Source: Chiloscyllium plagiosum (lineage: Eukaryota). From it: DNA of 64,000 nucleotides. Positions 1,153 through 61,334 of this stretch are shown here, one piece after another. The stretch's first letter is position 1; each line of letters starts with the position of its first letter. The position numbers were made by a program, and so were the translations under genes. The notes under the pieces are model-generated. The model was not told where the DNA came from and searched no databases. It was given only the letters and a program-made list of their open reading frames with translations. The DNA lies in contig NC_057725.1 in assembly GCF_004010195.1 (NCBI RefSeq), forward strand, positions 55,761,312-55,825,311, given 5' to 3'.

Positions 1153-3145
1153 AGTCAGAGTTATAGAGATGTACAGCATAGAAACAGACCCTTCGGTCCA
1201 ACCCGTCCATGCTGACCAGATATCCCAACCCAATCTAGTCCCATCTGCCAGCACCCGGCCCACATCCCTCCAAACCCTTCCTATTCATATACCCATCCAA
1301 ATGCCTCTTAAATGTTGCAATTGTACCAGCCTCCACCACTTCATCTGGCAGCATACACATACCACCCTCTGCGTGAAAAATTTGCCCATTAGGTCTCTTT
1401 TATATCTTTCCCCTCTCACCCTAAACCTATGCCCTCTAGTTCTGGACTCCCCCAACCCAGGGAAAAGACTTTGCCTATTTACCCTATCCATGCCCCTCAT
1501 AATTTTGTAAACCTCTATAAGGTCACCCCTCAGCTTCCGATGCTCCAGGGAAAACAGCCCCAGCCTGTTAAACCTCTCCCTATAGCTCACATCCTCCAAC
1601 CCTGGCAATATCCTTGTAAATCTTTTCTGAACCCTTTCAAGTTTCACAACATCTTTCCGATAGGAAGGAGACCAGAATTGCATGCAATATTCCAACAGTG
1701 GCCTAACCAATATCCTGTACAGCGCAACATGACCTCCCAACTCCTGTACTCAATAATCTGACCAATAAAGGAAAGCATACCAAACGCCACCTTCACTATC
1801 GTATCTACCTGCGACTTCACTTTCAAGGAACTATGAACCTGCACCCCGAGGTCTCTTTATTCAGCAACACTCCCTAGGACCTTACCATTAAGTGTATAAG
1901 TCCTGCTAAGATTTGCTTTCCCAAACTGCAGCACCTCGCATTTATCTGAATTAAACTCCATCTGCCACGTCTCAGCCCATTGGCCCATCTGGTCCAGATC
2001 CTGTTGTAATCTGAGGTAAAAAGGGAGAAAGTGAGGACTGCAGATGCTGGAGATCAGAGCTGAAAAATGTGTTGCTGGAAAAGTGCAGCAGGTAAAGCAG
2101 CATCCAAGGAGCAGGAGAATCGACGTTTCGGGGATAAGCCCTTCCTCAGTAATCTGAGGTAACCCTCTTCGCTGTCCACTACTCCTCCAATTTTGGTGCC
2201 ATCTGCAAACTTACTAACTGTACCTCTTATGCCTGCATCCAAATCATTTATGTAAATGACAAAAAGTAGAGGACCCAGCACCGATCCTTGTGGCACTCCT
2301 CTGGTCACAGGCCTCCAGTCTGAAAAACAACCTTCCACCACCACCCTCTGCCTTCTACCTTTGAGCCAGTTCTGTATCCAAATGGCTAGTTCCCCCTGTA
2401 TTCCATGAGATCTAACCTTGCTAATCAGTCTCCTATGGGGAACCTTGTCAAACGCCTTAATGAACTCCACATAGATCACATCTACTGCTCTGCCCTGATC
2501 AATCATCTTTGTTACTTCTTCAAAAAACTCAGTCAAGTTTGTGAGACAAGATTTCCCACACACACAGCCATATTGACTATCCCTAATCAGTCCTTGCCTT
2601 TCCAAATACATGTACATCCTGTCCCTCAGGAGTCCCTCCAACAACTTGCCCACCACCGAGGTAAGGCTCACTGATCTATAGTTCCCTGGTTTGTCTTTAC
2701 CAACCTTCTTAAACAGTGGCACCAACCACGTTTGCCAACCTCCTGTCTTCTGGCACCTTACCTGTGACTATCGATGATACAAATGTCTCAGCAAGAGGCC
2801 CAGCAATCACTTCTCTAGCTTCCCACAGAGTTCTCGGGTACACCTGATCAGGTGCTGGGGATTTATCCACCTTTACCTGTTTCAAGACATCCAGCATTTC
2901 CTCCTCAGTAATCTGGATGTTTTGCAAGATGTCACCATCTATTTCCCTACAGTCTATATCTTCTATATCCTTTTCCACAGTAAATAGGGATGCAAAACAT
3001 TCATTTAGTATCTCCCCCCTTTTCTGTGGCTCCACACAAAGGCAGCCTTGCTGATCTTTGAGCGGCCCTATTCTCTCCCGAGTTACCCTTTTGTCCTTAA
3101 AATATTTGTAAAAACCTTTTGGATTCTGCTTAATTCTATTTGCCA
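1153..3145 (-). mobile_element. 5'-truncated CR1-clade LINE (RT domain and 3' tail), decayed
   Basis: Minus-strand ORFs carry RT motifs PGNYRSVSLTS, KAFDKVPH, GVPQGSVLGPLLF, SKFADGTK and C-terminal LVRPLLEYC, RGDLIEVYK, TRGH. Frameshifted; interrupted at 2020-2148. Confidence 0.93.
2020..2148 (-). mobile_element. Short Penelope-derived terminal-repeat element (family A) with hammerhead core, inserted in CR1
   Basis: Perfect 14-bp direct repeat GTAATCTGAGGTAA at 2006-2019 and 2149-2162. Minus strand reads CTGAGGA-A-GGGC-TTAT-CCCC-GAAA-CGTC. Confidence 0.8.
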
Positions 3146-3591
3146 TCATTGGATAAGGTGTTCTATCTCCAAGCAAGTTAAAATCTTGATTATTTCCTCC
3201 TTCAGTTTTATGTATGAGGTTACAAGTAAGTCAGACGAGTGGCTGTCACCTGAATGGCGCTGTTTTGTCCAGACAATATGAAGTGCAAGTCTATAACTGG
3301 TATCTCATTAGCGCATAAACAATTATATTGGATATGCTCATTTAAGTCAGTGCATTCCCATTGAGTTAAGTGTTACTGTAGGAGATAATTGGCCATGTAT
3401 ATCATACAGACATGGGAATTTCTTACACTTTCCTGAGGCAGTGCATTTTAATCTTCTGAATGTGTCCTTAGTAATTGGGTTATAATTTTAAATTGATGCT
3501 AATAGCTAACATGCATTGCATACAAAGGTTATGTGTTAGTATCTCATATGGTAATATTTTTCAATAAAGCCAGAGTTTCATTTTATTTGAG

Positions 3592-3802
3592 GAGAAAGTG
3601 ACGACTGGAGATCAGAGCTGAAAATGTGTTGCTGGAAAAGCACAGCATGTCAGGCAGTATCCAAGGAGCAGGAGAATCGACGTTTTGGGCATGACCCCAA
3701 AGAAGGCTTCCTGAAGAAGGGCTCATGCCCGAAATGTCGATTCTCCAGCTCCTTGGATGCTGCCTGACCTGCTGTGCTTTTCCAGCAACACATTTTCAGC
3801 TC
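3592..3802. mobile_element. Fold-back family A Penelope-derived element
   Basis: Two inverted arms. Flanking repeats TTTCATTTTATTTGAG (3576-3591) and TTTCATTTCATTTGAG (3803-3818). + strand CTGAAGA-A-GGGC-TCAT-GCCC-GAAA-TGTC from 3711. Confidence 0.8.
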
Positions 3803-4097
3803 TTTCATTTCATTTGAGCTTGTTTTGATAGCAGCAGACATAACTGACAATACTCTATATAAATCTAACACTTTGACACCATTTCTTGTCCATTTATGGC
3901 TCTTCCTACCTTCCCCAACAGCTCCTTTTTGCCTGTGTCACTTTTTCTCTCTGGTCTTTTGCATTGTAATCCTCTCCCCCTACATTTCTAGCTCTTTTGT
4001 GTCACAATTACCCAGCCTTGTGTATTTCTGTTTGGCTAAATGCTCAGCTTGCTATGTGAGGATTAAGCAAATTGTGGTGAATCAGCTAAAAGGAAAA

Positions 4098-4222
4098 CAC
4101 TGATGCTGGAAATCTAAAATAAAAACACATGTCAGAGAAACTCAGCAGGTCCTTCAACATCCACAGAGAGAAAAAAAACCAAAGTTAATGTTTCAAGCCC
4201 AGGAAGACTCTTCTACGGAACT
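4098..4222 (-). mobile_element. Old, diverged Penelope-like terminal fragment
   Basis: GATGCTGGAAATC...CTCAGCAGGTC...CATCC...GTTAATGTTTC resembles the family A arm layout. Confidence 0.45.
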
Positions 4223-4540
4223 TTAATTCATGCTTTCCAGAAAATGGTTCCACCATCTCATTGTAGTCAGAAAGGTTTTCCATTCTCAGCATATACTTAT
4301 TGCTGGCAAACTTGGAAGAACCATCGTGGTTGTTTATAATGACTTCAAATGCATTTTTTCAATACATTATTTCAGAGCTAGTTCTGGATTATTAGTCCAG
4401 GTGTCTGTGATTACTACTCCAGAAGCAAAAGGCACTATCTATGATTTTCATTATTTTTGTTCTCCCCTGTCAATCAAGATTTCACAGCATTTTATTTTCT
4501 GTTCACCAAATGTGAATTTTGGGAAGTTCATTATCACATG

Positions 4541-4767
4541 ATGGAGGTGTTGGACTGGGGTGGACAAAGTTTTAAAAACTCACATAACACCAGGTTATAG
4601 TCCAACAGGTTTATTTGTAAGTACTAATTTTCAGCGTGCTGCTCCTTCATCAGGTAGCTGTGGATCAGGATCATAGACTTAGGATCGCTCCGAAAGCTAG
4701 TGCTTCCAACTAAACCTGTTGGACTATTACCTGGTAATGTGCGATTTTTTTTTTTTTTTTAAAAACT
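4541..4767. mobile_element. Fold-back family B Penelope-derived element
   Basis: Inverted arms CCAGGTTATAGTCCAACAGGTTTA and TAAACCTGTTGGACTATTACCTGG. 10-bp direct repeat TTATCACATG at 4531-4540 and 4768-4777. Partial hammerhead GCTCCGAAAGCTAGTG on +. Confidence 0.75.
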
Positions 4768-5947
4768 TTATCACATGGAAAAAGGATGGTGAAATGATTG
4801 ATGGGCTTTGGTAATCAGCATTTCTACACTTTAGCAGGAAAGTAAATGTTAGTTATTCAGTGACACTGCTCAAGCTTCTTCATCAGATTTCCACTAACAG
4901 CCACGTGGACAATGCCTCAAACCTTTAATCAGATATTACTGCTCAGAGTTTTCCAAACCTCAGGACAATGGTTCCAGCAGATCTCTTTTGAGCACATGGT
5001 TTGGGTCATCTCAATTTGGGACTTGTCTCTGCAGAACCTTTCTGTGAGGGATTCCTGATACTTGGAGTGAAGCTATTTACACTATAGGATGTTTGCACTG
5101 TGTATTAATTAAACTTTGAGCCTGGTTGTCGCTGCTTGGTACAGTTCAAATGAAGTATGCCATACAAAAAATACTCTTGTTGTAGTCTGACTTTGCACCA
5201 TCCTGGTAGTCATATGATAGAACAATTTTGGAAGTAACTGAAAACTTCATTCCTCACTAGATTCCCAAATATTCTTTGAAAATGAAGTGGCGAGTTTAGA
5301 GAGCTCACTGTTTGAAATGATAGTAACTTAAATCATTAACTAGGGACCTTGGTGTTACAAAAATGAAATACAGGACATAGCGGTCATCCCTGAGTCATAC
5401 TTTGGAGTGTTACACTGGTTCACGGAATAGTATCGTTCAGAAAAAGATCAATACCAGGTAAACATCCGGCAGTTCTTTCTCTGTTCCTGTGTTTGTTTGT
5501 GTTTTTGGGTTGCAAGTATGATTTTGATCACTTACCTCGAGTTGCTCAGGATTTGTTTTGTGCACTGGGTTTGTAAATATGGAGTTGACGTTTTAGGAGC
5601 TCGAGGTTAAAGTGACACCATGCTGAAATAACAGCACTTCATTATGTACACAAAAGGGTTCATGATAACACTGTGTCGTCAGTCTACTTAGCTGCTACGT
5701 ACATGCCTTGCAATTTCAGTGAATAGCGGAGCGTCATTAGTTTGAGGATTGTTATATGTAAACATTGTTGTTACGCTCGTGCACCTCTCTGCCTTTTCGA
5801 GCATGAAATGTCTCCAAGCTTTCTCAGTACAGAGCTCTTTTACATCCTGAGCTCATCTACAAAACCATCTCCTGCAGCAAAGCAGCACTTCAAAAGGTTG
5901 CACTAGTCATTGCCATTCTGAAGTGTTTTTGTTTTCACCCGCTCCTA

Positions 5948-6035
5948 ATTGGTAGGAAGTAATATATTGGTAGGAAGTAATATATTGGTAGGAAGTAATA
6001 TATTGGTAGGAAGTAATATATTGGTAGGAAGTAAT
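5948..6035. repeat. 18-bp minisatellite (ATTGGTAGGAAGTAATAT), about 4.9 copies
   Basis: Identical units start at 5948, 5966, 5984, 6002 and 6020. Confidence 0.97.
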
Positions 6036-6107
6036 GGACCTGGCAGCATCTTGCACAGGTGGCCAGTCTTTGTGACGTGAGATGAGGCAGATATTCGCAA
6101 GATATTT

Positions 6108-6439
6108 GGCGTGGCACGGTGGCTCAGTGGTTAGCACTGCTGCCTCACAGTGCCAGGCACCCGGGTTTGATTCCCACCTCGGATGACTGTCTGTGTGGAG
6201 TTTACACGTTCTCCCCGTGTCTGTGTGGGTTTCCGTCAGGTGCTCCGGTTTCCTCCCACAATCCAAAGATGTGCAGGTTAGGTGAATTGGACATGCTAAA
6301 TTGCCGGTAGTGTTAGGTGCATTAGTCAGGAGTAAATATAGGGTAGGGGAGTGAGTCTGGGTGGATTACTCTGCAAAGGGTCAGTGTGGACTTGTTGGGT
6401 CGAAGGGCCTGTTTCCAAATTGTAGGGAATCTAATCTAA
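6108..6439 (+). mobile_element. HE1-type V-SINE
   Basis: tRNA-like head GGTGGCTCAGTGGTTAGCACTGCTGCCTCACAG, central domain GTGGAGTTT...CTCCGGTTTCCTCCCACA, (TAATC)n tail. Confidence 0.85.
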
Positions 6440-7057
6440 GGTTTTCCAATATGGGGAAAGCTAATTGAGCCTGTGCTATTCACCTCTGAAATTGAAGCCA
6501 TACATTACCCAGTGGTGTGAAGTAGGAGCCCTGACCAGGTTTCGTTCCCTTTTCCCGCTGGGAAACATGCAGCTTATTTCTGAATTTAATCATAGAACTA
6601 ATTGGCAGTTTAGAAGTGTTTACTTTTTTTTTGTTAATGTCACTGACCAGGTAAAGCTGCACCCAGGTAAGTATATGAACATATTCGAAATAGGAGCCAT
6701 AAAACAGTCCCTTCATAAAACATGCCAGCCAATAATTTGTGATTGATTTGCCACTTCAGTTCATGTGTATGAATCTTGACAAAAAAAAGTTGCCATTCCT
6801 GAAACCAATATTAACAAATGGTGACCAGAGATAAATGGTGCAGTCTCCAATTCCTGACATAGTTATGGGTGAACACAATCTATCTCCTAAAGCTTATGTG
6901 GGATTGGACTCGATTGGAGGAAAAGATGTACTGCATTGTATCAAGATACTATGACCCTTCATTCTATTAAAGGCTGTACGAAATGGCCTTACAGTCATTG
7001 CTTGTGGTTTTTGTGTTAACTGTTTCCCTAACTTGCACTTCTTATTATTCTTTTCAG

Positions 7058-7267
7058 CGATATGTAGATGGAGGAATTACAGATAACTTACCTCAATATG
7101 AACTCAAAAACACAATTACAGTCTCCCCCTTTGCTGGAGAAAGTGACATCTGTCCTCATGATGGCTCCAACAATATGCATGAATTGAGAATAACCAATAC
7201 CAGCATCCAATTCAACCTGCAGAACCTGTACCGCCTTTCCAAGGCATTATTTCCTCCTGAAGCAGAG
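7058..7267 (+). CDS. PNPLA2: PNPLA2/ATGL-like coding exon (equivalent to human exon 5), contains the catalytic DGG motif
   Basis: Acceptor ttttcag|CGA, donor GAG|gtgaga; 210 nt, phase 0/0. Encodes [70 protein letters not shown], close to human [37 protein letters not shown]...[13 protein letters not shown]. Exons 1-4 were not found in the window. Confidence 0.95.
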
Positions 7268-7493
7268 GTGAGAACAAATAAATAAATAGACGAGGATGTT
7301 CATAGTTTTTTTTTGTTTTGAACCTACAAATGTTACTGAATGCAAATGAGCAAATTCTTACAAATAAGCTTCACTTATCCCAACCCCTCTGAATGAGAAC
7401 ACAGATTCTACAAGACATGAACAGTGTAGGGCGTAAGCTTGAACTTTTTTGTTCCAATAGCAATGTCTGCACTATTGCTAAGATCAGTAGGGT

Positions 7494-7835
7494 CTCTGGC
7501 CTGGCTGGTAGCGCAGAGGTGATGTCACTGGTCAAGTGATCCACAGGCTCAGTCTGATGTTTGAAGTATGTAAGTTCACATCTGACCGCTACACCTGGTG
7601 ATATCTAAATTCAATTGATCAGTCTGGAATATGAAGCTAGTCTCTGTAATGGTGGCTATGGAATGATTACTGAATTGATTTTTTTTTTTTTAAAGACACC
7701 ATCTTCTGGTTCACTAATGTCCTTTTTAGGGAAGGAATTCTGCCATCCTTGCAACACCTGTGTTACTACCCTGCTCCCTCAGTTCAAGGGGCAATTAGAT
7801 GTGGGCACCAATTGCTGGTCTTGTAAGGAAAGCTA
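7494..7835 (+). mobile_element. Old tRNA-derived SINE (second family)
   Basis: Degenerate A/B-box head and TCTGGTTCACTAATGTCCTTT...GGAAGGAATTCTGCCATCCTT core; related sequence recurs near 45050-45270. Confidence 0.5.
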
Positions 7836-8289
7836 AGATCCAAGGAGTGGATTAAAATTAAAATACAACGTCAGTTTGCCTACAGGCCCTGTTTCCTGAG
7901 GCCGAAGTTATTAGAGATAGTAATTTTATTCCAACGGAGCCTTGTGCATGTTCAGTTAATTCTCCGGTAATGTATTTAAGTATTGAGTGGGTATACATGA
8001 CCAAGAACATGATAGGTTCCTTACAAATGGCTTCCCTGTTCCAGATAAGTAGCCTACTTTCATGCAATGTGGTTCTGCTGAGTGTTTACTTCATACAAAC
8101 CCCTTAAAGGAAAAAGAATGTACCATTATGTAGAACAAAACATCCACAAAATGCACAAAGTGGTAAATAAAAATAACAGTGCACCATTTGGAAAGTATTT
8201 GGATAAATTCAAGTGTTGCAGGAGCAGAAAAAGAAATGGGGATGTTGAAATACGAGACTTGAGAGTGTACTCAGCATTTCAACACAGCC

Positions 8290-9560
8290 AGGACATACTT
8301 GGACTTGAAGTCTTACAGCATCCAGTTTCTTAGTGTTAGGTGAGTGAATCGAATTGGCTGTGCACTGCTTTCTGTGATGGTGGGGAAACTCATTGGGAGG
8401 CAGGAATGGATCACCCACTTGATGGGTTTAGAAAGGTCTGTCTTGTCTTTTAGAAACAAACACTGGATTCCCCCTTCATGGGAGTATTTACAGAATCTCC
8501 TTGTATTAGCTGTATAATTGACCTCTGCTATTCATGATTGAACGTGACAGGAATACAGAGCTTATCTGATCTGTTGGTTGTGGGATTGCCTCGCACTATA
8601 TAAAACAAACTGCTTTCAACGTTTAGAATGCATGCTCTGTATTTTGCATGCTCTTCATCAGGCTGGAACCTTACCTTTTGGGTATATTTGGTTCTGATCT
8701 TGACATGCTCTCTGACGTAGAAATCAGGGTTATTCTCCTGGTTTGATGATGGTAATGTGAGGGTTATGCCAAACCATAACATTTGTCAACTGTATTTGAA
8801 TATGACTCTGCTGCTCAGGATGAACAACATCCAATGATGCCCAACTTTGAGCGGTGAGATCAGTTCTGAAGCTCTCTATACGTTGCATTTGGAAAGGTCA
8901 CACAGCGTCATGGAGGGTGGCCTCAGTATGCAAATGGGACATTATTTCCATAAGACTTTGCAGAGATGACTCTGACCAAAACTTCATGACCAGATGCATG
9001 TACTGCAGGGAGATTACAGGGAATGATACCAGGTTGGATTATCATGTGAGCCAACTCCTGCAGACCTAGTGTGTCCTTCAGGATTTGGTGAGCATTGGCA
9101 GAATACGGTCACACTTGATGGTGGGTATTGAAAACTCCAACTCAAACTACATTCTATATCTTTGTCCTTTTGCTTCTTCTAAGTGATGTTCGACTTGGAG
9201 GAGCATTAACATAACAGCTGAGTGAGGTCAGTTGGTGGTAATCAGCATGGTTTCCTTTTGACCTGAGGCTATGAGCCTTTGTGAGGTCCATTGTTGAGTT
9301 CCCCCCCGGCTATACCTTCCTTGCTGGATACCAGTGACACCACATCTGATGGATCTGTCCTCCCTTTGAGACAGGCTGGGCACATGGATCATGGGATGTT
9401 GGCTGAGAGGTATGATCCTGCAAATATGACTGTCAAACTGTGTGGCTGGACAGTCCTCTAATCTTGGCACAGATTTCCAGGTAGGGGAGGAGGAGGAGGA
9501 GGAGGACTTTGTGGGATTGACTGAACAGGTAGTGCTTTTGTTGCATCCAATATCAGGGGA
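8290..9560 (-). mobile_element. Heavily decayed LINE fragments (endonuclease/RT remnants)
   Basis: Minus-strand remnant PSLSQREDRSIRCGV resembles the APE-domain R.DR...GGGV motif; many stops. Confidence 0.4.
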
Positions 9561-11428: not shown

Positions 11429-12487
11429 AGGATGGTGTGTGGCTTAGAGGGGAAACTGCAAATGGTGGCATCCCTGTGCATCTGCTGCCTTTATCCTTCT
11501 AGATGGGAGAGGTTAGTGGTTTAGGAGGTACTGCTGACAGAGCCTGGGAGGGTTGCTACAATGCATCTTGTAGATGGAACATATTGCAGCCACCCAGTAC
11601 ATCCGTAGTGATGGGAATGAATATTCAAGTTCGTCAATGAGTGACAAACAAACTGATTCCTCTTATCCTGGTCAAGTTTGTTGTATTGTTGGACTACATC
11701 TATCCAGGCAAAAAGGAAGGTAATGCCATGGAATGTCACAGAGAGATGATTAGCTTCTATCTTGTTGGAGAGATCATATTATGGTTGTCACATATTTCAC
11801 CAGTACCGCCATTGCAACTTCGGATTCTGGCATTAAAAAGGAAAAATTATACTCTTGTTGCAAACTTTCAAAGTGCTTGAGTGGAAGTTTCATTTTAACC
11901 ACTGTTACTGGATAAAATGGCATTTATGTATCAGGAAACAAATATCACACTGACTTAGCTTTGATTGTCTACAGTATTATTGTAAAAATAACCTGACGTT
12001 AATTGTAGTCTTATTAGGTTCACACTGGGTGACTTGGCTTCAGATTATAAACAGAGAAGATAGAAAAGAAGGCACCCCTGCAGGGGAAGGGCAATATGAT
12101 TTCACATTTAAGGCTGCCTCCAATTTATGGCATTGATGTTATTCATGAATAGCCTTGATAACTCTCATACCTGCCAACTAAGGATCATAATGTGGACTTC
12201 TGGGAAGTGAAAGAGGGGTGAAAGATTGTGCTTATCAGAATAATGAGGCTTTTTCAACTTATTTTTATTTTATATATGTACAGTACTGTTTCCAGATTGA
12301 TTTTTTTATGCCACCCTGTGGTGATGCTAAGCAACAACACTTCAAAGCCATTCTGGTAAAAATCACAGAACACCAGGTTACAGTCCAACAGACTTATGTA
12401 GAAGTATTTCCAAATGCTGTATTTTTTTGCTGTTTTCTGTTTCAATGGGACTTTATTAAAATAAATTTTAGCAAAGCAATTTACTAC

Positions 12488-17845: not shown

Positions 17846-18084
17846 TGATATGGAGGTGCCGGGGTTGGGTTGGGTTGGGCAAAGTTTAAAAATGACAACA
17901 CCAGGTTATAGCCCAACTGTGGTTTTTTTTTTTGGAAGCACTAGCTTTCGGAGCGTTGCTCCTTCATCAGATAACTCGCCTACCTGATGAAGAAATTACC
18001 TGAAGGAGCAGCGCTCCGAAAGCTAGTGCTTCCAAAAAACAAAACCTGTCTGACTACAACCTGGGTGTTGTGAGAGTTGTAACT
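17846..18084. mobile_element. Fold-back family B Penelope-derived element with hammerhead core
   Basis: 12-bp direct repeat TTGGCAGAGAAA at 17834-17845 and 18085-18096. Minus strand 17970-17942 reads CTGATGA-A-GGAGC-AAC-GCTCC-GAAA-GCTA. Confidence 0.8.
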
Positions 18085-18841
18085 TTGGCAGAGAAAAAGA
18101 AAGCTAGTGATGTGTCAAGAGTGATGGGGTTAATATTGGATTGTTGGAGGAGGACTGCGAGTTGATGTAATTGTTCTATAAAGCCCATGCAAAACAGCTT
18201 GCTTTGATTCCCTTATTTACATTTTAAAAATCTAATTTAAACCACTTGCTGGGTGGGTAATTGAATTATCTGTGTAATGTGATTATCTATTCTAATAGTT
18301 TAATACACCACTAAACAATTTTCCGCTCACTGGGCTTCAGGAAGGTCAATACAGGATCACAAAGCAAGTTGGACTTTATTTTTTTACAAACATGAATGAG
18401 TTTTAAACCTTTGTAGCTCATACTTTCTCAATGCTGGTGACTGTCAAAATAGGTCTAATTTTGTAAACTGCCAGTTTTTCACAAAACAAAGCATCTCTCT
18501 TTCTCAGATATTACATTCTGTCCCCTCCTGTTGGATTGCTGAAATTTAAATATGCAGGATAGACCAGGTTATTTATCTCCTTGAGAGTTTATCTTCCTCA
18601 TGTACCAACCTTGGTCAGGTGAAGGTTATTTACAGAGAATCAGAAGGTGTGTATACATAGCCAGCAATTCTCATTTTATTCTTGCCAGCTCATGATTTCA
18701 GTCTTTCAAAGAAAATGCAGCCATTCAATAGTTTTTCCACCCATTATTTCCACCCATTTTTCCACCCTCACCCATAACTTGTGTTTCTAATATTATTGAC
18801 ACCATTACATTGGTTCTACATAACGGAGCATTTTTCTAAAT

Positions 18842-19719: not shown

Positions 19720-20228
19720 GTAAGTTTGCAACTTTTATTGTTCCTTGCCATCATTAGGGATCAATCATCTTCCTCTCTCCTTTATTGGAAAATCATATCT
19801 GATCAGGAGAAGTTGATCTGTCCGGTGTGGATATTATCAACATCCCTTCTAGGTGCAGCATATCAGAATAACTGGTGTCTAAGTCGTGGAAATGGAAAAA
19901 TTAATGGAGCTAATTCTCTGATCCTTTGCCCCTGGTGGGGAACCACACTCACAGGAGCACTGCTTAGACAGTCAGAATACAACAGTCTCATCTTGTCTTT
20001 GGCTCAATTTCCTTTTCAATACCACCTTCTCCAATGGAGCATTGAATTGTGGACTTAACCTTAGTAAGTTTTGGTTTGCCTTGGCATTCTGGCAAAGTAC
20101 CACTTAAAATATTGGCAACTGTAGCCAACTTGCGAGGAGGAGAGATGGAGACAAGCAAACATAGATTTAGAATTCATAAGTATTTATTTATCTGGCACAG
20201 TACTGTGTAATCAGACTGTTTCGTAGTA

Positions 20229-20485
20229 CTTTCCACATCCGGCAGAGATTTTCCTGCACATTCAAACACCTCATCTACCGTGTCAGTCGCTCTCGATGTG
20301 GTCTCCTCTACAGTAGGGAGACAGGACGCCAAATTGCGGAACGTTTCAGGGAACATCTCTGGGACGCGTGCACCAAACAATCCCACCGCACTGTGGCTGC
20401 ACACTTTCGACTCCTTCCCATTGCGTCAAAGACATGCAAGTCCTGGGCCACCTCCATTGCCAAATTCTAGCCACCCAACTCCCTG
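20229..20485 (+). mobile_element. Penelope-like retroelement fragment (GIY-YIG endonuclease)
   Basis: Translates FHIRQRFSCTFKHLIYRVSRSRCGLLYSRETGRQIAERFREH...VAAHF, then after a frameshift DMQVLGHLHCQ. This is the PLE pattern IY.I.C..C..YIGET.R....RF.EH. Confidence 0.85.
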
Positions 20486-27113: not shown

Positions 27114-27202
27114 TGAAACTTTATTGCTGGAACAGCACAGCAGGTCAGGCAGCAACCAGGGAACAGGAGATTCGACATTTCGGGCACAGGCCCTTCTTCA
27201 GG
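27114..27202 (-). mobile_element. Family A Penelope-derived short element
   Basis: Minus strand CTGAAGA-A-GGGC-CTGT-GCCC-GAAA-TGTC; GAGTTAG on both sides. Confidence 0.75.
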
Positions 27203-34989: not shown

Positions 34990-36800
34990 GGGAGAGAGAG
35001 AGAGGGAAGGTAAGAGAGGTAGGCAGCTGGTGCAGGAGTCTTTTGTGGATATACCCACTTCAAACAGGTATGCTGTTTTGGAAAATGTAGGGGGTGATGG
35101 CATGAACAGCCAAGTTTCTGGTATTGTGACTGGCTCGAATGCAACAAGGGGCACATCGGGTTCCAAGAGATCAATTGTGTTAGGGGATTCTGTAGTCAGT
35201 GGTACAGACAGACGTTTCTGTGGCCAGCAGCGAAAAATTAGAATGGTGTGTTGCTTCCTTGGTGCCAGGATCAAGGATGTCTCAGAGAGGGTGCAGAATG
35301 TTCTCAAGGGGGAGAGGGGCCAGGTCATTGTCCATATTGGAACCAAAGATATAGGAAGGGAAAAGGTTGAGATTCCGAAGGGAGATTACAGAGAGTTAGG
35401 CAGAAATTTAAAAAGGAGGTCCCCGAGAGTAGTAATATCTGGATTACTCCCAGTGCTATGAGCTAGTGAGGGCAGGAATAGGAATAGCAGATGAATGCAT
35501 GGCTGAGGAGCTGGTGTGTGGGAGAAGGATTCACATTTTTGGATCATTGGAATCTCTTTTGGGGTAGAAGTGACCTGTATAAGAAGGACGGATTGCACCT
35601 GAATTGAAAGGGGACTAATATGTTGGCAGGGAATTTTGCTAGAGCTGCTCGGGAGGATTTAAACTAGTAGGGTAGTGGGGTGGGATCCAGGGAGATAGTG
35701 AGGAAAGAGATCGATCTGAGACTGGTACAGTTGAGAACAGAAGCGAGTCAAACAGTCAGGGCAGGCAGGGACAAGGTAGGACTAATAAATTAAACTGCAT
35801 TTATTTCACTGCAAGGGGGCTAACGGAGAAGGCAGATGAACTCAGGGCATGGTTAGGAACATGGGACTGGGATATCATAGCAATTACAGAAACATGGCTC
35901 AGGAGTGGGCAGGAATGGCAGCTTAATGTTCCAGGATACAAACGCTACAGGAAGGATAGAAAGGGAGGAAAGAGAGAGGGTGAGTGGCATTTTTGATAAG
36001 GGATAGCATTACAGCTGTGCTGAGGGAGGATATTCCCGGAAATACACCCAGGGAAGTTATTTGGGTGGAACTGAGAAATAAGAAAGGGATGATCACCTTA
36101 TTGGGATTGTATTATAGACCCCCTAATAGTCAGAGGGAAATTGAGAAACAAACTTGTAAGGCGATCTCAGCTATCTGTAAGAATAATGAGGTAGTTTTGG
36201 TAGGGGATTTTAATTTTCCAAACATAGACTGGGACTGCCATAATGTTAAGGGTTTAGATGGTAAGGAATTTAAGTGTGTACAAGACAATTATTTGATTCA
36301 GTATGTGGATGTGCCGACTAGAGAAGGTGCAAAACTTGTCGTACTCTTGGGAAATAAAATTCCTGAAGAAGGGCTTATGCCCGAAACGTCGATTCTCCTG
36401 TTCCCTGGATGCTGCCATTCCTGAAGAAGGGCTTATGCCTGAAACGTCGATTCTCCTGTTCCCTGGATGCTGCCTGACCTGCTGCGCTTTTCCAGCAACA
36501 CATTTCCAGCTCTTGGGAAATAAGGCAGGGCAGGTGACTGAGGTATTAGCGGAGGAGTACTTTGGGGCCAGTGACCATACTTCTATTAGACTTAAAATAG
36601 TGATGGAAAAGGATAAACCAGATCTAAAAGTTGAAGTTCTAAATTGGAGAAAGACAAGAACTTTCAAAAGCTGATTGGGGGCAGATGTTCGCAGGCAAAG
36701 GGATGGCTGGAAAATGGGAAGCCTTCAGAAATGAGATAACAAGAATTCAGAGAAAGTATATTCCTGTTAGGGTGAAAGGAAAGGCTGGTAGGTATAGGGA
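34990..36800 (+). mobile_element. CR1 LINE 5' portion: ORF1 (SGNH esterase) and ORF2 APE endonuclease, decayed
   Basis: ORF1: PTSNRYAVL, IVLGDSVV, HIGTKD, DGLHLN. ORF2: IIAITETW, LYYRPP, VGDFNFP, SDH. Stops and frameshifts present; interrupted at 36358-36509. Confidence 0.9.
36358..36509 (+). mobile_element. Family A element with two tandem hammerhead cores
   Basis: Perfect 14-bp repeat CTCTTGGGAAATAA at 36344-36357 and 36510-36523; cores start at 36363 and 36421. Confidence 0.85.
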
Positions 36801-40769: not shown

Positions 40770-43700
40770 ATGTGTACAGAAACAATCTCTTTGGCCCATC
40801 AAGAATGTTCCAGTTTATCTATTCTAACCCCCATTTTCCACCATTGAACCCTTAATAAAGCCTCTGCACTTGTAAATATTTCTTAAATGATGTAAGAGTT
40901 TCTGCCTGTACCACCCTTTTAATGGCAGTGAGATTCAGATTCCCATAACCCTCTGAGTGAAAAACATTTTTCCCCACATCACCTCTAAACTTTCTGCCTT
41001 TTATCTTAAATCTATGTACTCTGATCATTCATCCATCCACCATGAGGTCAAATGTTTTCCTGGCTATCCTATTGATCTATGACCTTCATAGTTTTATACA
41101 CTTTAATCGTGTCCCCACTCAGTCTCCTCTGTTCCAAAGAAAACAACTTTCCAACATCCTGGTAAATTCTCCTGCAGTACAATCACATTCTTCCTATAAC
41201 TTGGATTCCAGAACTGTGCAACATTATAATTAGTGTGGAATGTTGAATGGCTGTGACAGCTTGCATTTACATAATGCTTTTAACATAGTAAAATGATCGT
41301 GTGCTCCGGAGGGAAATGCAAAGGGGGTGGGGAAATGCATAAAGCCAAAAATACCCATAAGACATTGCAACAGAAGTAGGCCATTTGACCCATTGTCTGC
41401 TTTGCCGTGCAATGAGATCATGGATAATCTGATAATCCTTAACTCCATGTTTTTGCATTTTTACCCACAATCCTTGATTCCCTTACTGATCAACAATCTC
41501 TCAATTTCAGCCTTAAATATACTTAAAGGCTTAATCCTACAGCCCGGTGTGGTACAGATGTCTACAGATTGACTAACTACCTTCTGAGAGAAGAAATTCC
41601 TTCTCCTAACTCGGGGAGCCTTATTCTGAGATTTCGGTGCACAGGTCCTAGATGATCCTCCAAGGGGAAATAACCTCTCGACTTTGGCCGTTTTAAGTCC
41701 TCACGAATCTTGTGTTTCAATAAGTTTGCCTCTTGTTGTTCTAAATTCCAATGGGTATATTGCATCCACTGCTCCTGACGTAGTCTCCTCTACATCAGAG
41801 AGACCGAATGCAAACTTGGGGAGCGGTTCAGGGAACATCTATGAGCCGCACACTCCAATCAACCCCACCTTCTAGTTGCTAGCCATTTCAAACCCCCTCT
41901 CTCCGACAACATGTCCATCCTGGGCTTCCACTACAGTTAAAATAATTCCCTCTCCACCCTGGCCCCTTGATCTGACCTATCCATCTTCCTGCTCACCTAT
42001 CTGCTCCATTCTTCCCACTGACCAACCACCGCCACCTCCTACCTGCATTCACCTATTTGCTGCCCACCCCCCCCCATTTATTTTGAAGCTCTCTTCCCCA
42101 GCCTTGACAAAAGATTCTGACCTGAAACATTGACTCTCCTGCTCCTTTGATGCTACGCTACTTGCTGTGCTTTTTACAGCTCCACACTTTCTCAACTCGG
42201 AGTATAAACCCAACCTACTTATTCTCTCCTTATTTTAACAAAAAAATCCTCCATACCCAGGATCAATCTAGTGGACTGCCTCTGATGCCAATATGTCTTC
42301 CTTCAGTATGGGTATTAACACTTTGCAACATTCCAAGTGTGATGTAATTAGTACCTTGTATGGCTTTAGCAAGACTTCCTTTTTATTTAAAACTCCAGTT
42401 CCTTTGTACTAAAGGCTAATAATTCCATTAGCCTTCCCTATTATCTGTTGAACTCATTTGCCAGCCTTTTGTACCCAATTCCCTCAGTACTGCAGCGTTT
42501 TGCAGTTTCTCCATTTAAATAATATTCTGATCATCTATTCCTCCACCAAAGTACACTTTCCCACATGTTCCATCTGCCAACTTGCTTAGCCTGTCTGTAT
42601 CCCTCCTATTTTTGAGTCATCTGTAAACTTTGCTATAGTACATTCGCCTCCCTCATCCAAGACATTAAGATGTATGTTGCAAACAAATACAGCTCTAGCA
42701 CTGTTCCCATTGGCACTCCAGCAGTCACAGGTTGCCATCCTGACATTTCTTTCCCCAACACCTCCCCCATCCCCCCCTCCCCCATCTCAACTCTGTCTTC
42801 TCTTCGGCAATCCTCTATCAGAGCTCATTACTCAACACTGAACTGTTATCTTCACTTAAGTATTTTTGCAAACATCTTTTTGGAAATCCAAATATAATAA
42901 ATCCATTGCTTCATCTTTATGTATCCTGTTACCTCCTTTATACAGTTCTGTATATAAAGCTGTGCTGACTCTCATTCATATTACAGTTGGAACTTTTAAA
43001 TGCTCTGCTATTACATCATTTATAGTTGATATAAACTGGCCTATAATTGTTTTATTATCCTCTCGTACTTTTTTGAATCAAGGTATTTGTTCCATTGGCA
43101 ATCCTTAAGCATTTTTCTGGAATTTCAAGATTCTTGAAAATTTCTACCAGGGCATCCATTACATCTCTGGCTACTTCTTTTTAATATCTTTAGTTCATCC
43201 CATTTGGTCCAATGGACTTATTCTTCTTTAGCTCCATTAGATGTCCTAGTACTTTCTTAATTTGTGATAGTTATTGTATCTCTATACTCTTCCCCTTTTT
43301 GCCCCTTGAATATTTAGTAACTTTGAAATGCTATTAGTGTCTTCTACTGTGAAGACTGATGCAAAGTATTTATTCAATTTCTCTGCCATTTCCTCGTTCC
43401 TCATTGTTACTTCTCCAGTCTGTTCACTTATGGTCACTTAGGCCTCTCATTTCCAGAATCTCTTGCTTCATGTTGATATTACTTGCAAATTTAGTCTCAA
43501 TTTGTTTTTTTTGGTCATCCTTTGTTGGTTTTTATAAACTTTCCTATTCCACTGACTTACCATTAATCATTGTCACACTAATGTTTATTTTCTTTCAATT
43601 TGATGTTATCCTTAAGTTTCCTGGTTAATCATAGTTGGCTTATACCCTTCTGAATCATTTGTTCTCACTGGAGTTTATCATTATTATGAGTCATGAAGTA

Positions 43701-44751: not shown

Positions 44752-44905
44752 GGAGAAAGTGAGGTCTGCAGATGCTGGAGATCAGAGTAGAGTGTGTGTT
44801 GCTGGAAAAGCACAGCAGGTCAGGCAGCATCCGACGACCAGCAGAATCGATGTTTCGAACCAGAGCCCTTTATTAGGAATGAGGCTGGGAGCCTCGGGGT
44901 TAGAG
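44752..44905 (-). mobile_element. Family A Penelope-derived terminal fragment, core degenerate
   Basis: GGAGAAAGTGAGGTCTGCAGATGCTGGAGATCAGAG arm. Confidence 0.75.
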
Positions 44906-49467: not shown

Positions 49468-49668
49468 GGTGAAAGTGAGGACTGCAGATGCTGGAGATCA
49501 GAGTCGAGTGTGTGGTGCTGGAAAAGCACAGGTCAGGCAGCATCCGAGGAGCAGGAGAATTGATGTTTTGGGCATTCCTGATGAAGGGCTTATGCCCGAA
49601 ATGTCAATTCTCCTGCTCCACGGATGTTGCTTGGCCTGCTGTGCTTTTCTAGCACTACACTCTCAACT
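49468..49668. mobile_element. Fold-back family A element with hammerhead core
   Basis: + strand CTGATGA-A-GGGC-TTAT-GCCC-GAAA-TGTC at 49578-49605; imperfect flanking repeat AATCTCCT...TGGTG. Confidence 0.8.
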
Positions 49669-50711
49669 ATAATCTCCTTGGTGCCTTAATATTGCGACCC
49701 TGCCCACCACCCACCCATCATGCAGAAATGTCTATTTTGCAACCAACTCCAGTTGGTTAAATTATCCTCTACATCATCTTCAGATTATTGTTGGTCATCA
49801 CTCCATATGTGTAGTGCCAAGAGACATTGACTGGTTGAAGACTAAACTTGTGATGCAGAAAGAAACACCATTCCTGGCAGTGAGAAGTAGCCTCATTAAA
49901 AATTGTAAGACTAAGTTTCAAGCCCCTGGAATACTGTCAGTGGCTTTGCATGAGCAGTACGATTGATTGGCTAATAATTCTTAAATGTCTACAGAGTTGG
50001 CTCATTTATGAAAGTTGTCATTTTCCATTGCATTAGATTCTCATGCAGCGAGCTTTATAAATTGCATTAATGGAATTCCTACTGGGGGGAAAAAAGTAAT
50101 AAACATCACCACGGTAAATGTAAATTAGCTTTAACATTTCATCATGCCGTTGAAATTAATTTGGACATTTATTTGGGCTAATACAAATTTTGAAATGTTT
50201 GGTGAATGTACTCCTTTTACAAGAAGATCAATTAACAATGTGGCCTTGTTTTGGATATATTCCATACTGCCATGAATTGTACTTTGAGAGTATACTTTTT
50301 TATAATGGTGCTCCTTGCTTGTCCACCGTGCAATCCTGGTCAAAGAGGATTTTCCTAATTTCCTCACTATTGGGTAAAATAGGGCCTTCTGTCTGGCTTG
50401 GAGGGATATTCCTGGTAATTTCATTTTGTCATCTCCCACCTTCATCGGGTCCATTGAACAGTTTTCATTTTACCCTCTACATTACTTTTATAATCAGGAA
50501 ACAAGTGAGGGTCAATGAAAATAACAGGGATAAAAACAGCCCCTCTGGAATTGTCTTAATTTCTATAGACTCCTAATAACCCTGGATCACTTAATACATG
50601 CAATGCTCTGCTTTTGTCCCTGCATGGATTAGTTACTTGTAGACATGTTAGTTCAAAGGAGAAAACAGCACAATCCTTGAGGATTAGTCTCTTTTTTTTT
50701 AATCTCCATAG

Positions 50712-54589: not shown

Positions 54590-54770
54590 GGCTGTCTTCC
54601 CTAATTTTTAAAATCGCACAACACCAGATTATATTCCAACAGGTTTACTTGGAAGCATTGGCTTTTGGAGCACTGCTCCTTTGTGTGAAGCTATAAATGT
54701 TTTGCTCTAAGTTCTGTGTCTTATAATCCTGTTTCACAGCTTCACACTGGCATCTTCACATCATGCCCTA
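54590..54770. mobile_element. Degenerate family B element
   Basis: CACAACACCAGATTATATTCCAACAGGTTTA...GGAGCACTGCTCC. Confidence 0.6.
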
Positions 54771-56272: not shown

Positions 56273-57801
56273 TTTGTCAAATACACTCTATACCATGAAG
56301 ACAGATACAAGATATTTGTTTCCTTTGCCGTTTCCTTTATTCTCCTGCCTGTAAGGAGCCCCTAGTTCCTCTCATTGGTTTTGCCTTTATCAATAACTGA
56401 AGTATATTGTAGCAACCATGTTTCACTTACCTGCTCAATAAATCAGTTTAACCAACACAAATTCTGGAAAATGATTTATGAAGATGTTATTGAGCAATAG
56501 GACTTGATACTCCACCCCACTTGCAGGGATGTGTCATGGATTCTCTATTTAACGTCAGAGTCTCATTTGTATTTACCAAGGTACAGGACAGATAGGTACC
56601 ACTCTGAGTGGCACAACACATCAAGGCGGCTTGTATGTTTACCTTTTGCCTTCTAGTAAAGTTTTCTGGAGACATTTTTGGTAGCCTTGGAGAAGACGTG
56701 ATGGTGAACTGGTCAGCAGATGCTTCAGATAACAGTCGTTTGTGCTGTTTCCACTTGAACGGGTCAAAAGGATCTCCTCAGTTAATTGTTAAAATTGAAA
56801 ATGTTCAAACTTGGCACAGAAGCAATGACCAACAGAACCTGCTTAACAGGAGCAGTAGCAAACAGAATTTGATATCCTAGCCAGCTGTGATATTGGGCAA
56901 GGTGATGAAAAGCACTGTAAAAAGGAGGTCTTAAGGAATATCTTAATGGCAGTTAGGGAGGGAATTCCAAAATGAAGGCCTTGGTAGCTGAAAACATGGC
57001 CACTGATGGTCGAGTTAGGTACTCCAAAAATAGACAATTATGGAGAGCTTGAGTAGCTCGGTTAGAGGAGATTATTGCAGGGGTGAGGCCATATAAAGAG
57101 GATATGAACGTAAGAATGAGAATAAATGTGTGGGCAGGGGTGGCTGATGAATAGGATTTGGTGCAAGTTGGAATATAGTTAATATAACTTTTGGATCGAC
57201 ACAATATAGGAGGTTGTCCAGGAGTACATGGAATAGTCTATTCTTGAGCGCTCAAGGGTTGGGTGTGGGCTGCAGTTGGAGATGAGCGAAGGCATGGAAT
57301 TCAGCAAGATGAAGGAGGGGGGTGTAAGCAGAGTTAGAATTGTCAGTTGTAAAAACTGATTGAGAATTTATATTTTGACTCCGATGATCTTAGAGTGAAT
57401 GACTTCCTTCCTTTCGGGACTTATGGGTGACTGAAGAGTCTAATATTAGGTCTGTGCACCTTGCCACAAATGTTTGAAGTGCTCAGTGGGTGGGTTTTCA
57501 CATGCTTCTTCCACTGTTTGCATATGGTCGCCACTTGCCCCTACTGGATGTTCTCTGGTTGGCAGCTTTTTTTTTGTTTTGTTCCAGTTTGTCTGATTGA
57601 ACATGAGACCAAGTTTGCAAACAGTCAAATTCCACCTCACCATGCCAAGTAGAGAGATGAAGTTGGTGGCTCAGAAACAGATTGGGAACTGAAGACCAAG
57701 GCTTTGGTCGTTTTAAAATATATCGAGAAAATTTCTGCTTGAGGGCTGGATATTTGACAAGTAGTCTGACAGTAGAAGAGTTGAAAAAGGTACTATCAAA
57801 G

Positions 57802-57958
57802 GAGAGTCGAAGGTGTGTAGCTGGAAAAGCACAATAGGTCAGGCTTTTGCCCGAAATGTTGATTCTCCTGCTCTTCGGATGCTGTCTGACCTGCTGTGTT
57901 TTTGCAGCACCACACTCTCGATTCTGATCTCCAGCATCTGCAGTCCTCACTTTTGCAG
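57802..57958. mobile_element. Family A element (duplicated at 60229-60385)
   Basis: Flanking repeats CTATCAAAGGAGAG and CTATCAAAAGAGAG; the 5' half of the core is missing. Confidence 0.75.
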
Positions 57959-58188
57959 CTATCAAAAGAGAGCTGTCTCTTGTCACCATACAGATAGGAA
58001 CTGTTGTAAGGTGAAGTAAATGGGAAGCAAGGTGATGTAAATGAGGAGCAGTTTGTAGATAACACCAAGGATTAGATCCTTGAGGTATGGAGGTAATGCT
58101 GAGTGAAGGGTAAGAGAAGCCATTGCACTGATACTGGGTAGTTATGAATGGAACCAGATTTATGACTGTCTATCAGCTGGATGACAGT

Positions 58189-58943
58189 NNNNNNNNNNNN
58201 NNNNNNNNNNNNNNNNNNNNNNNNNNNNNNNNNNNNNNNNNNNNNNNNNNNNNNNNNNNNNNNNNNNNNNNNNNNNNNNNNNNNNNNNNNNNNNNNNNNN
58301 NNNNNNNNNNNNNNNNNNNNNNNNNNNNNNNNNNNNNNNNNNNNNNNNNNNNNNNNNNNNNNNNNNNNNNNNNNNNNNNNNNNNNNNNNNNNNNNNNNNN
58401 NNNNNNNNNNNNNNNNNNNNNNNNNNNNNNNNNNNNNNNNNNNNNNNNNNNNNNNNNNNNNNNNNNNNNNNNNNNNNNNNNNNNNNNNNNNNNNNNNNNN
58501 NNNNNNNNNNNNNNNNNNNNNNNNNNNNNNNNNNNNNNNNNNNNNNNNNNNNNNNNNNNNNNNNNNNNNNNNNNNNNNNNNNNNNNNNNNNNNNNNNNNN
58601 NNNNNNNNNNNNNNNNNNNNNNNNNNNNNNNNNNNNNNNNNNNNNNNNNNNNNNNNNNNNNNNNNNNNNNNNNNNNNNNNNNNNNNNNNNNNNNNNNNNN
58701 NNNNNNNNNNNNNNNNNNNNNNNNNNNNNNNNNNNNNNNNNNNNNNNNNNNNNNNNNNNNNNNNNNNNNNNNNNNNNNNNNNNNNNNNNNNNNNNNNNNN
58801 NNNNNNNNNNNNNNNNNNNNNNNNNNNNNNNNNNNNNNNNNNNNNNNNNNNNNNNNNNNNNNNNNNNNNNNNNNNNNNNNNNNNNNNNNNNNNNNNNNNN
58901 NNNNNNNNNNNNNNNNNNNNNNNNNNNNNNNNNNNNNNNNNNN
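58189..58943. other. Assembly gap (755 N)
   Basis: Run of N. Confidence 1.
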
Positions 58944-61334
58944 CCACTTGCAGGGATGTGTCATGGATTCTCTATTTAACGTCAGAGTCTCATTTGTATT
59001 TACCAAGGTACAGGACAGATAGGTACCACTCTGAGTGGCACAACACATCAAGGCGGCTTGTATGTTTACCTTTTGCCTTCTAGTAAAGTTTTCTGGAGAC
59101 ATTTTTGGTAGCCTTGGAGAAGAAGTGATGGTGAACTGGTCAGCAGATGCTTCAGATAACAGTCGTTTGTGCTGTTTCCACTTGAACGGGTCAAAAGGAT
59201 CTCCTCAGTTAATTGTTAAAATTGAAAATGTTCAAACTTGGCACAGAAGCAATGACCAACAGAACCTGCTTAACAGGAGAAGTAGCAAACAGAATTTGAT
59301 ATCCTAGCCAGCTGTGATATTGGGCAAGGTGATGAAAAGCACTGTAAAAAGGAGGTCTTAAGGAATATCTTAATGGCAGTTAGGGAGGGAATTCCAAAAT
59401 GAAGGCCTTGGTAGCTGAAAACATGGCCACTGATGGTCGAGTTAGGTACTCCAAAAATAGACAATTATGGAGAGCTTGAGTAGCTCGGTTAGAGGAGATT
59501 ATTGCAGGGGTGAGGCCATATAAAGAGGATATGAACGTAAGAATGAGAATAAATGTGTGGGCAGGGGTGGCTGATGAATAGGATTTGGTGCAAGTTGGAA
59601 TATAGTTAATATAACTTTTGGATCGACACAATATAGGAGGTTGTCCAGGAGTACATGGAATAGTCTATTCTTGAGCACTCAAGGGTTGGGTGTGGGCTGT
59701 AGCTGGAGATGAGCGAAGGCATGGAATTCAGCAAGATGAAGGAGGGGGGTGTAAGCAGAGTTAGCATTGTCAGTTGTAAAAACTGATTGAGAATTTATAT
59801 TTTGACTCCGATGATCTTAGAGTGAATGACTTCCTTCCTTTCGGGACTTATGGGTGACTGAAGAGTCTAATATTAGGTCTGTGCACCTTGCCACAAATGT
59901 TTGAAGTGCTCAGTGGGTGGGTTTTCACATGCTTCTTCCACTGTTTGCATATGGTCGCCACTTGCCCCTACTGGATGTTCTCTGGTTGGCAGCTTTTTTT
60001 TTGTTTTGTTCCAGTTTGTCTGATTGAACATGAGACCAAGTTTGCAAACAGTCAAATTCCACCTCACCATGCCAAGTAGAGAGATGAAGTTGGTGGCTCA
60101 GAAACAGATTGGGAACTGAAGACCAAGGCTTTGGTCGTTTTAAAATATATCGAGAAAATTTCTGCTTGAGGGCTGGATATTTGACAAGTAGTCTGACAGT
60201 AGAAGAGTTGAAAAAGGTACTATCAAAGGAGAGTCGAAGGTGTGTAGCTGGAAAAGCACAATAGGTCAGGCTTTTGCCCGAAATGTTGATTCTCCTGCTC
60301 TTCGGATGCTGTCTGACCTGCTGTGTTTTTGCAGCACCACACTCTCGATTCTGATCTCCAGCATCTGCAGTCCTCACTTTTGCAGCTATCAAAAGAGAGC
60401 TGTCTCTTGTCACCATACAGATAGGAACTGTTGTAAGGTGAAGTAAATGGGAAGCAAGGTGACGTAAATGAGGAGCAGCTTGTAGATAACACCAAGGATT
60501 AGATCCTTGAGGTATGGAGGTAATGCTGAGTGAGGGGTAAGAGAAGCCATTGCACTGATACTGGGTAGTTATGAATGGAACCAGATTTATGACTGTCTAT
60601 CAGCTGGATGACAGTGAAGAAATGACACTGGCGAATGGTGTGGCTCAAGCTTGCCAAACGTTACAGATAAGGTTGGATCGCTTACTTTTAATCACAGTCT
60701 TACCAGCATATAAATTGTGCCTGGGAGAGCTGGAATCAGTACTGTCAAAGATATTTGATTTGAGGAATGCAAATGTGGAGTTCTAACAAAAATGGGCACT
60801 GAATTGGGAGGCACTAGCATGCATTCAGGAAGCTGAGTGTTCCCCAGATGGATGTAATGATCTGGAGAGATTGTGGGGCCATGATTGGGTGATGGTGAGA
60901 GGCGAAAAGGTAGGACGGCAGTTGTTGCAACCTGATACTGTTCTTTGGGAGGAACAGAATGTCCCATTTTAATTTTATTCCATTTCTGTTTCATGCACAT
61001 ACGTCCTTACCACAGCAAAAACATTAGTTGAGTATCTTTTGAATCGTTATCATTACACTGCCCAATATGGTAAATATCTTGTTATAAGTGGTTATTGCAC
61101 CATGTTGTTGTCAGAATTGCTTTGCTAAGCTATCCAAGGTTACTAGCAAGGTTAAGGCAATCAGAACAGGACTGCTTATAATGCTGTTTACTCCATTCAA
61201 GAGTTTCCAGTCAGTATATATAGTCATTTCAAAATCAGTCCAACTTCTTCAGTCATATAATATTTACGCTCGGCTTGCCTGTGCTGCCAATTTCCAATCG
61301 GATCTCCAAGTGGCAAGGTAATGGTTACTTGGAT

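Follow-up and report, generated by a model that had tools for sequence, protein, structure and literature searches.

Short hammerhead-bearing repeats in a Chiloscyllium plagiosum contig as probable pseudo-LTR copies of a Neptune-like Penelope element

The stretch considered here (the window) comprises 64,000 nucleotides of the shark Chiloscyllium plagiosum (RefSeq assembly GCF_004010195.1, contig NC_057725.1, positions 55,761,312 to 55,825,311 of the forward strand) and contains dispersed copies of a short unit, family A, with a minimal hammerhead ribozyme core. We propose, with a probability of about 0.8, that family A is the hammerhead-bearing pseudo-long terminal repeat (pseudo-LTR) of an autonomous Neptune-like Penelope element, and that its short copies are one-off products of reverse transcription of the element's RNA. 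Positions within the unit are numbered with the C of CTGA as 0, and the predicted ribozyme cut lies between +27 and +28. An initial annotation of the window had named eight insertion sites; the unit is present at each of them, and a ninth, older copy was found (Table 1). Head-to-head pairs occupy three of the named sites and the duplicated site 57802/60229, and the remainder are three single arms and one 58-nt partial tandem. The copies at 57802 and 60229 are a single insertion, because both lie within a 1,672-bp duplication around a gap of N (window 56517-60600; period 2,427 bp; 9 differences in 1,672 bp; 755-base gap at 58189-58943); the doubling may be an assembly artefact or a recent tandem duplication.

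The full core that had been described for the best copies stands in only six window arms, namely 2149(-), 3711, 27201(-), 36363, 36421, and 49578, and the ACGU palindrome is kept in only three of these (2149(-), 36363, and 36421); the other arms are decayed, cut within the core (34626 and 57842/60269), or mutated (44884). The (C/T)GTC variation among the window cores is CpG decay, and most window copies have by now decayed and are likely to be inert. Duplications at the ends of the nine insertion sites are clear in five (12-16 bp; 2020, 3588, 34569, 36359, and 57802), one site has a 10-bp repeat, and three have none. Two of the copies lie in long interspersed nuclear element (LINE) remnants: the copy at 2020 sits inside a reverse transcriptase (RT) remnant, with a flanking frame matching RVT_1 (E 2.5e-22), and the host sequence of the youngest copy is an endonuclease remnant.

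Table 1. Family A copies in the window, with strand, structure, and repeats at the insertion ends.
Feature	Position	Strand	Structure	End repeat
Single long arm, 0..+124	about 2020-2153	-	core at 2149 complete with ACGU; one stem II pair broken	target duplication 2006-2019 / 2149-2162, 14 bp
Head-to-head pair	3588-3804	long arm -, short arm +	long arm +8..+127; short arm -3..+93, core 3711, palindrome CpG-decayed	16-bp target duplication, 1 mismatch
Single short arm, second young subfamily (loop CTGT)	27111-27203	-	core 27201, CpG-decayed	target duplication looked for at the ends, none found
Older head-to-head pair	34569-34752	long arm +	long arm begins at +2, core cut (34626)	12-bp target duplication, 1 mismatch
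Youngest copy, 58-nt partial tandem	36359-36514	+	both cores complete (36363 and 36421); short end lies at +93	exact 14-bp target duplication
Minimal hammerhead	36363-36390	+	C3-A9 at 36363-36369, then an added A; stem II of 4 bp; G12-A15.1; palindrome ACGU; cut predicted to follow C17 (36390)	
Old longer copy	41734-42189	+	GIY-YIG remnant, 3' untranslated region, decayed core, tail	
Single long arm, mutated core	44752-44884	-		
Head-to-head pair	49468-49677		core 49578 on +, CpG-decayed	10-bp direct repeat
Head-to-head pair, first copy of the 2,427-bp-period duplication	57802-57953		long arm begins at +9, without CUGA	
Same head-to-head insertion, second copy	60229-60380		in the duplication beyond the gap of N	

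The motif itself recurs far above chance. A descriptor made of the core, stem II, a palindromic helix III, and a 2-bp stem I matched the window three times (two family A copies and one of a second family, B) and matched none of 20 shuffles; in 867 kb of other genome stretches it matched 45 times, compared with 1, 1, and 2 in shuffles. The Rfam hammerhead models, which had been suggested as a check, gave no match in the window up to E=5. Stem II contains G10.1-C11.1, and helix III is a palindrome, ACGU in family A and AGCU in family B. The initial description of a minimal type I hammerhead, with one base added behind A9, a palindromic helix III, and a 2-bp stem I, is borne out by the sequence. 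The core had been open to doubt if it proved no more conserved than its flanks; for a core defined as C3, U4, G5, A6, G8, A9, G12, A13, A14, A15.1, U16.1, and H17, conservation is 0.984 over 10 non-CpG core columns and 0.891 over 57 tail columns, with a p-value of 1.6e-5 that is overstated because the copies are related and were picked by BLAST. The variability already remarked at N7 and loop II is also real (conservation 0.50 and 0.80).

In folding calculations the stem II pairs have probabilities of 0.55-1.0 across seven folds, and 0.99-1.0 for the hammerhead at 36363-36390. Against an active ribozyme, stem I, which has 2 bp (4 bp in one subfamily), has a probability below 0.09 in monomer folds and is thus unformed, and the two-core dimer fold of 36359-36514 is 6.4 kcal/mol above the free fold. 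No extended stem I or closing stem common to five long copies was found when these were sought. Folding of stem II without stem I in a monomer is to be expected, because such minimal motifs are described as dimer- or protein-dependent in the available parts of three accounts (PMC4209133, PMC11167929, PMC6765202); a 2-bp helix I is on record for the Penelope element of D. virilis.

Family A is not the only family of this kind. Family B, a second hammerhead-bearing Penelope family, occurs in the window at 4559-4749, 12357-12404, 17880-18087, and 54603-54681, also head to head; it has a 5-bp stem II, the AGCU palindrome, and the cut triplet CUA, with 32 sites in 867 kb, and a GIY-YIG remnant stands 646 nt in front of one long copy (L003). 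At least three further families have the same core with other stems (L063:1709, L065:3186 and 6137, L146, L151:2588, L175:3861), one of them 185 nt behind a GIY-YIG remnant. A hammerhead-like core with a longer stem II at window 8614-8661 (-) is unmatched to family A or B.

The parent element was reached from the youngest copy. A genome search with window 36418-36514 gave 40 near-identical matches, of which 30 were examined as loci, and many share upstream sequence; a stepwise upstream walk led to an RT thumb with 6,391 first-look candidates in the genome. The family A tail lies downstream of this thumb in 25 of 30 loci, which agrees with the Penelope origin, and mobilisation by a Penelope-like element (PLE) RT/GIY-YIG enzyme, claimed in the initial annotation. 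One open frame, P0001, encodes 821 amino acids with a match to RVT_1 (E 5.7e-8), the motifs DKG, YIDD, and YIG, a C-x4-C-x2-C linker, and, behind the linker, a GIY-YIG match slightly below the cut-off (E 3.1e-4; 21.4 bits compared with 22.6). Its closest named proteins, among 1,450 matches, are uncharacterized shark proteins, at 77-84% for bamboo shark and 71% for whale shark. The stop codon is followed by a 156-nt 3' untranslated region and then the hammerhead core. At the other end, 12 of 20 loci have a tail that continues straight into the 5' region of the open reading frame (ORF), where the main ATG lies at +162. The order is thus hammerhead, 125-nt leader, ORF start (+162), RT, CxxxxCxxC linker, GIY-YIG, 156-nt 3' untranslated region, and hammerhead; since the tail runs into the ORF start and the hammerhead recurs behind the stop, the unit is circularly closed, as in the Penelope pseudo-LTR. 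The GIY-YIG remnant of the old window copy at 41734-42189 has 45% identity to P0001 residues 700-766 (tblastn, E 3.4e-9). It speaks against this reconstruction that no single copy could be read at full length, owing to gaps of N and a GC-rich minisatellite, and that the unit is pieced together from loci.

By its motifs the element is assigned to the endonuclease-bearing (EN+) Penelope-like elements with a minimal hammerhead. A CX2-5CxxC linker between RT and endonuclease is described as marking Neptune, and as common with Nematis (PMC8557442, seen in part); the element therefore appears Neptune-like by its linker rather than by an RT tree. Two observations concern other parts of the element. 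An isolated PLE endonuclease fragment with 57% identity to P0001 690-752 lies at window 20222-20460, with no tail found beside it, and a 72-nt GC-rich repeat of the N-terminal region has given rise to free minisatellite arrays at several places (G000:C15:4034396-4036248; L206-L219).

The number and ends of the copies were taken from contigs C1-C40, sampled at round coordinates as 130 stretches of 10 kb with 1,250,883 non-N bases in total. Arms were called with eight natural references, and those at stretch edges or beside N were excluded; eight were used because a single reference inflated the count at the 5' edge (106/167), where up to 15 of 56 unpaired arms continue into older upstream sequence. 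The sample holds 236 arms at 183 sites, or 146 sites per Mb, which would give about half a million sites genome-wide if this density holds.

The 5' ends are strongly concentrated. Among the 236 arms, 121 end at -15..+10, 45 farther upstream, and 13 at +26..+31; for the 65 young arms the respective numbers are 51, 6, and 1. An independent sequencing run shows about a fourfold increase in contig depth at this edge. For one young core, exact counts over the whole genome gave, at the base before ATTC, G 3,444 times, A or T 2,280 times, and the templated C 15,396 times, so that G makes up 60% of the non-templated bases against a background of 25%; in a control one base further in, G was found in 13 of the first 100 of 6,146. 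The sequence TCATTCC around the A four bases before CUGA fits the initiator consensus YYANWYY. Transcription would start at this A, in the pseudo-LTR; copying from the front start site would run off the capped end of the RNA after 90-130 nt to leave the stubs, while copying from the rear start site would yield the longer, variably cut copies. A promoter within the Penelope pseudo-LTR is described in the part seen of PMC2377424.

Several results weigh against such a start. More than half of the exact cores (15,396 of 27,266) extend past -4, more than the long copies explain, and a single start at -4 therefore cannot explain the entire pile-up. The G excess is not visible in the 130 stretches (5 G and 13 A or T, in mixed subfamilies); among the first 20 G matches, the partner arm could have supplied the base in 5, and only 4 plainly lack a template. 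An exact target duplication ends with this G in at least 3 of the 11 single arms among them, as would be selected by a complementary DNA (cDNA) with an extra C at its end, although this is no direct proof. Of two raw runs of RNA reads, one gave 1,686 reads on both strands, 95% continuing into other sequence, and the other none; the read ends do not accumulate at either the cut or the start, and the reads are not taken as a measure of expression.

The strongest competitor derives the stubs from ordinary 5' truncation of copies that were primed at the rear pseudo-LTR, and attributes their pile-up not to the start of the RNA but to RT stalling, or cDNA annealing, at the hairpins and palindrome around the core. 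The passage of most exact young cores beyond -4 would suit this, as would a weak palindrome at -10..+9 around the core, where head-to-head junctions often fall; palindromes at inverted junctions are on record (PMC3846280, in part). Stalling leaves unexplained, however, a G excess that is specific to -5 and absent one base in, and the presence of that G on both arms of locus L131; in addition, the second family differs in its upstream sequence and yet has 25 of 42 arms ending at this place (a raw count uncorrected for reference divergence). As the whole explanation stalling thus seems doubtful, but it is likely to contribute. Run-off at a capped start likely explains part of the pile-up, and the palindrome or further starts another part.

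The geometry of the insertions may be described by two priming modes. Head-to-head pairs consist of one long and one short arm in 46 of 49 cases in the sample, including 11 of 12 in the 40 stretches that were added last. The 3' ends form one cluster at +124..+128 and a looser one at +71..+96; in young pairs the long arm starts at a sharp site (+125..+127) and the short arm at a variable one (about +40 to +95), mostly sharing 1-5 bases with the target. Target duplications of 10-18 bp, mostly 14-16 bp, flank 19 of 22 young pairs compared with 5 of 613 controls. The enzyme would nick both strands about 15 bp apart and the RNA would be copied from both nicks, one priming at +126 without homology and the other near +40..+95 through short homology; the two cDNAs would then join head to head through short homology, or join the target. 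Young single arms fit this poorly, as only 3 of 11 and 3 of 14 (6 of 25) have a target duplication. Arm identity is 0.929 within pairs and 0.905 between insertions (34 pairs), values that do not distinguish one RNA from two. In 46 pairs the short arm reaches farther 5' in 25, the long arm in 14, and 7 are ties; pure fold-back of the first cDNA as the sole route to pairs was rejected on this count. Truncation at the ribozyme cut was likewise rejected as the source of the stubs, given the few arms ending at +26..+31.

Indirect evidence of cleavage comes from fusions with U6. A U6 search gave 48 scored matches, of which 42 were taken, in 40 stretches, and six in two gene clusters were left out. 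The U tract of U6 is joined to the family A tail at +28 in 4 of 40 U6 loci (L299, L314, L324, and L331; the L324 join was read from the sequence, as its BLAST alignment begins at +37), whereas only 6 of 236 ordinary arms end at +27..+29. The head-to-head pairs at L314 and L324 each have an identical U6 join, and identical private changes, on their two arms. The ribozyme would cut after GUC (+27/+28) only occasionally, as a dimer via ACGU or with the element's protein; most inserted RNA would be uncut, and the rare 5'-OH product would be joined to U6. RtcB ligation of the U6 cyclic phosphate to a 5'-OH has been shown for L1, according to the part consulted of PMC6789731. Detracting from this evidence, U6 is also joined to the start of a short interspersed nuclear element (SINE) in about 16 of 40 loci and to the PLE endonuclease region in 2 of 40; such joins at SINE starts and inner PLE positions imply that a join needs no ribozyme-made 5'-OH, and the weight of the evidence lies in the position of the join, not in the join as such.

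It is unlikely, in our estimate, that the motif is a hammerhead relic or a protein-binding fold without cutting and that the joins at +28 are template switches at a pause. The 2-bp stem I and unfavoured monomer fold would agree with a relic, as would the scarcity of ordinary arms ending at the cut and the other repeats joined to U6, and insertion in vitro is reported to be independent of cleavage (PMC11167929, in part). A relic leaves aside, however, that all four U6-to-tail joins, from at least two subfamilies, fall at +28, where ordinary cDNAs seldom stop, that those of L314 and L324 occur on both arms as if already present in the RNA, and that the core and palindrome are retained across unrelated families. 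It is likely that the copy ends record both the RNA start and cutting in vivo by the tiny ribozyme. Two related observations are that the roughly 16 U6 copies followed by the 5' end of an abundant SINE (L303-L335; window examples at 6126 and 47173) form U6-SINE chimeras, and that at L326, a single case, the U6 junction falls near the cut predicted for a third hammerhead family.

The initial annotation had regarded the copies as non-autonomous elements in a lineage of their own, a view that the present evidence does not support, as the unit is the end of an autonomous element. Long copies are found under all eight subfamily references and copy lengths form a continuum; on a tree of 162 tails (40 long and 122 short) the long/short label changes 34 times (a count with no shuffled baseline), and identity is 0.921 for short-to-long and 0.922 for short-to-short comparisons. 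The mixing on the tree and the equal identities speak against short copies as a lineage apart; these copies are probably dead stubs left by the Penelope element rather than a mobile family of their own. A distinct SINE- or retrozyme-like family of 90-130 nt, copied in trans by the PLE enzyme, is very improbable, for although most copies are short with clustered 5' ends, PLE machinery can act in trans on RNA bearing the pseudo-LTR (PMC3846280, in part), and non-LTR retrozymes have been proposed as PLE derivatives (bioRxiv 10.64898/2026.07.22.740005, in part), such a family is at odds with these long copies and identities, with junctions and short-arm ends that vary from copy to copy, and with the absence from the window of long tandem arrays of hammerhead units, only one 2-unit 58-nt repeat being found.

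A ribozyme motif in PLE ends is not new. The hammerheads of PLE pseudo-LTRs described by Cervera and De la Pena (2014; PMC4209133, available in part) share with family A a type I core without a stable helix III, palindromic 15.2-16.2 positions, an extra base between 9 and 10.1, and G10.1-C11.1, and they are mostly single and dispersed, from truncated PLEs, with some close pairs on opposite strands. Stem II and stem I have 4 bp and 2-4 bp in family A, compared with 7-8 and 4-5 in Schistosoma, and coelacanth and Xenopus have 4,000-9,000 motifs, compared with the half a million sites estimated here. The part of that survey at hand does not mention sharks. For other cartilaginous fish, Penelope LINEs are listed for whale shark (PMC8455134) and retrozymes for one species (bioRxiv 10.64898/2026.07.22.740005), both in the parts seen. 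The searched literature, which lay mostly outside subscription journals, contained no paper on hammerheads of shark PLEs, on stubs from capped run-off, or on U6 joined at the cut of a PLE.

In the Anolis Poseidon element PAc (Frangieh et al. 2024; PMC11167929, in part), as in family A, the RT starts internally, about 120-127 nt behind the core, and the behavior of PAc in vitro matches the scheme proposed here: a further start lies upstream by the length of a tail, the enzyme nicks and extends both strands, and uncut RNA is the main template. Unlike PAc, whose ATG lies in stem II, the shark element has a Neptune-type linker and its main ATG behind the tail, and its proximal start varies and shares homology with the target; the portion of the PAc account consulted has neither the capped run-off stubs proposed for the shark element nor its U6 joins at the predicted cut. 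Insertions of EN+ PLEs (Craig et al. 2021, PMC8557442; Arkhipova et al. 2013, PMC3846280; both in part) resemble those of family A in strong 5' truncation, partial tandems, an inverted 5' copy, a 30-40-bp tail at one end only, and junction palindromes; their target duplications are 8-10 bp, shorter than most of those in family A, for which the rule of one long and one short arm is here backed by a count. That either arm may reach farther 5' would not be given by a simple fold-back of the first cDNA. In the U6/LINE-1 chimeras of Moldovan et al. (2019; PMC6789731, in part) a U6 U tract and a 5'-OH retroelement RNA are joined and then retrotransposed, as proposed for family A, but the join position in L1 is variable.

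We lean slightly towards the broader view that this genome is a natural record of the Penelope cycle, in which hundreds of thousands of strong-stop copies would represent the capped front of the RNA, twin priming from both nicks would use one fixed and one homology-guided start, and U6 chimeras would mark germ-line hammerhead cleavage followed by ligation to the 5'-OH. Family A accounts for about half a million small insertions, on the estimate above, in one shark-type genome, and bears on in vivo cutting by the weak hammerheads of animal Penelope elements, on their transcription start, and on the origin of mirror-image insertions. The predictions are countable: transcription beginning at the A that precedes the core by four bases, cleavage between +27 and +28, and two different ways of priming in each insertion.

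Two features of the window lie apart from these families. The frame at 6971-7285 has a DGG motif and presumably resembles an exon of a patatin-like lipase gene, for which a Pfam search of the frame gave no supporting match. A tRNA-like match with a long variable arm (35.6 bits, E 9e-4) is located at 29365-29446.

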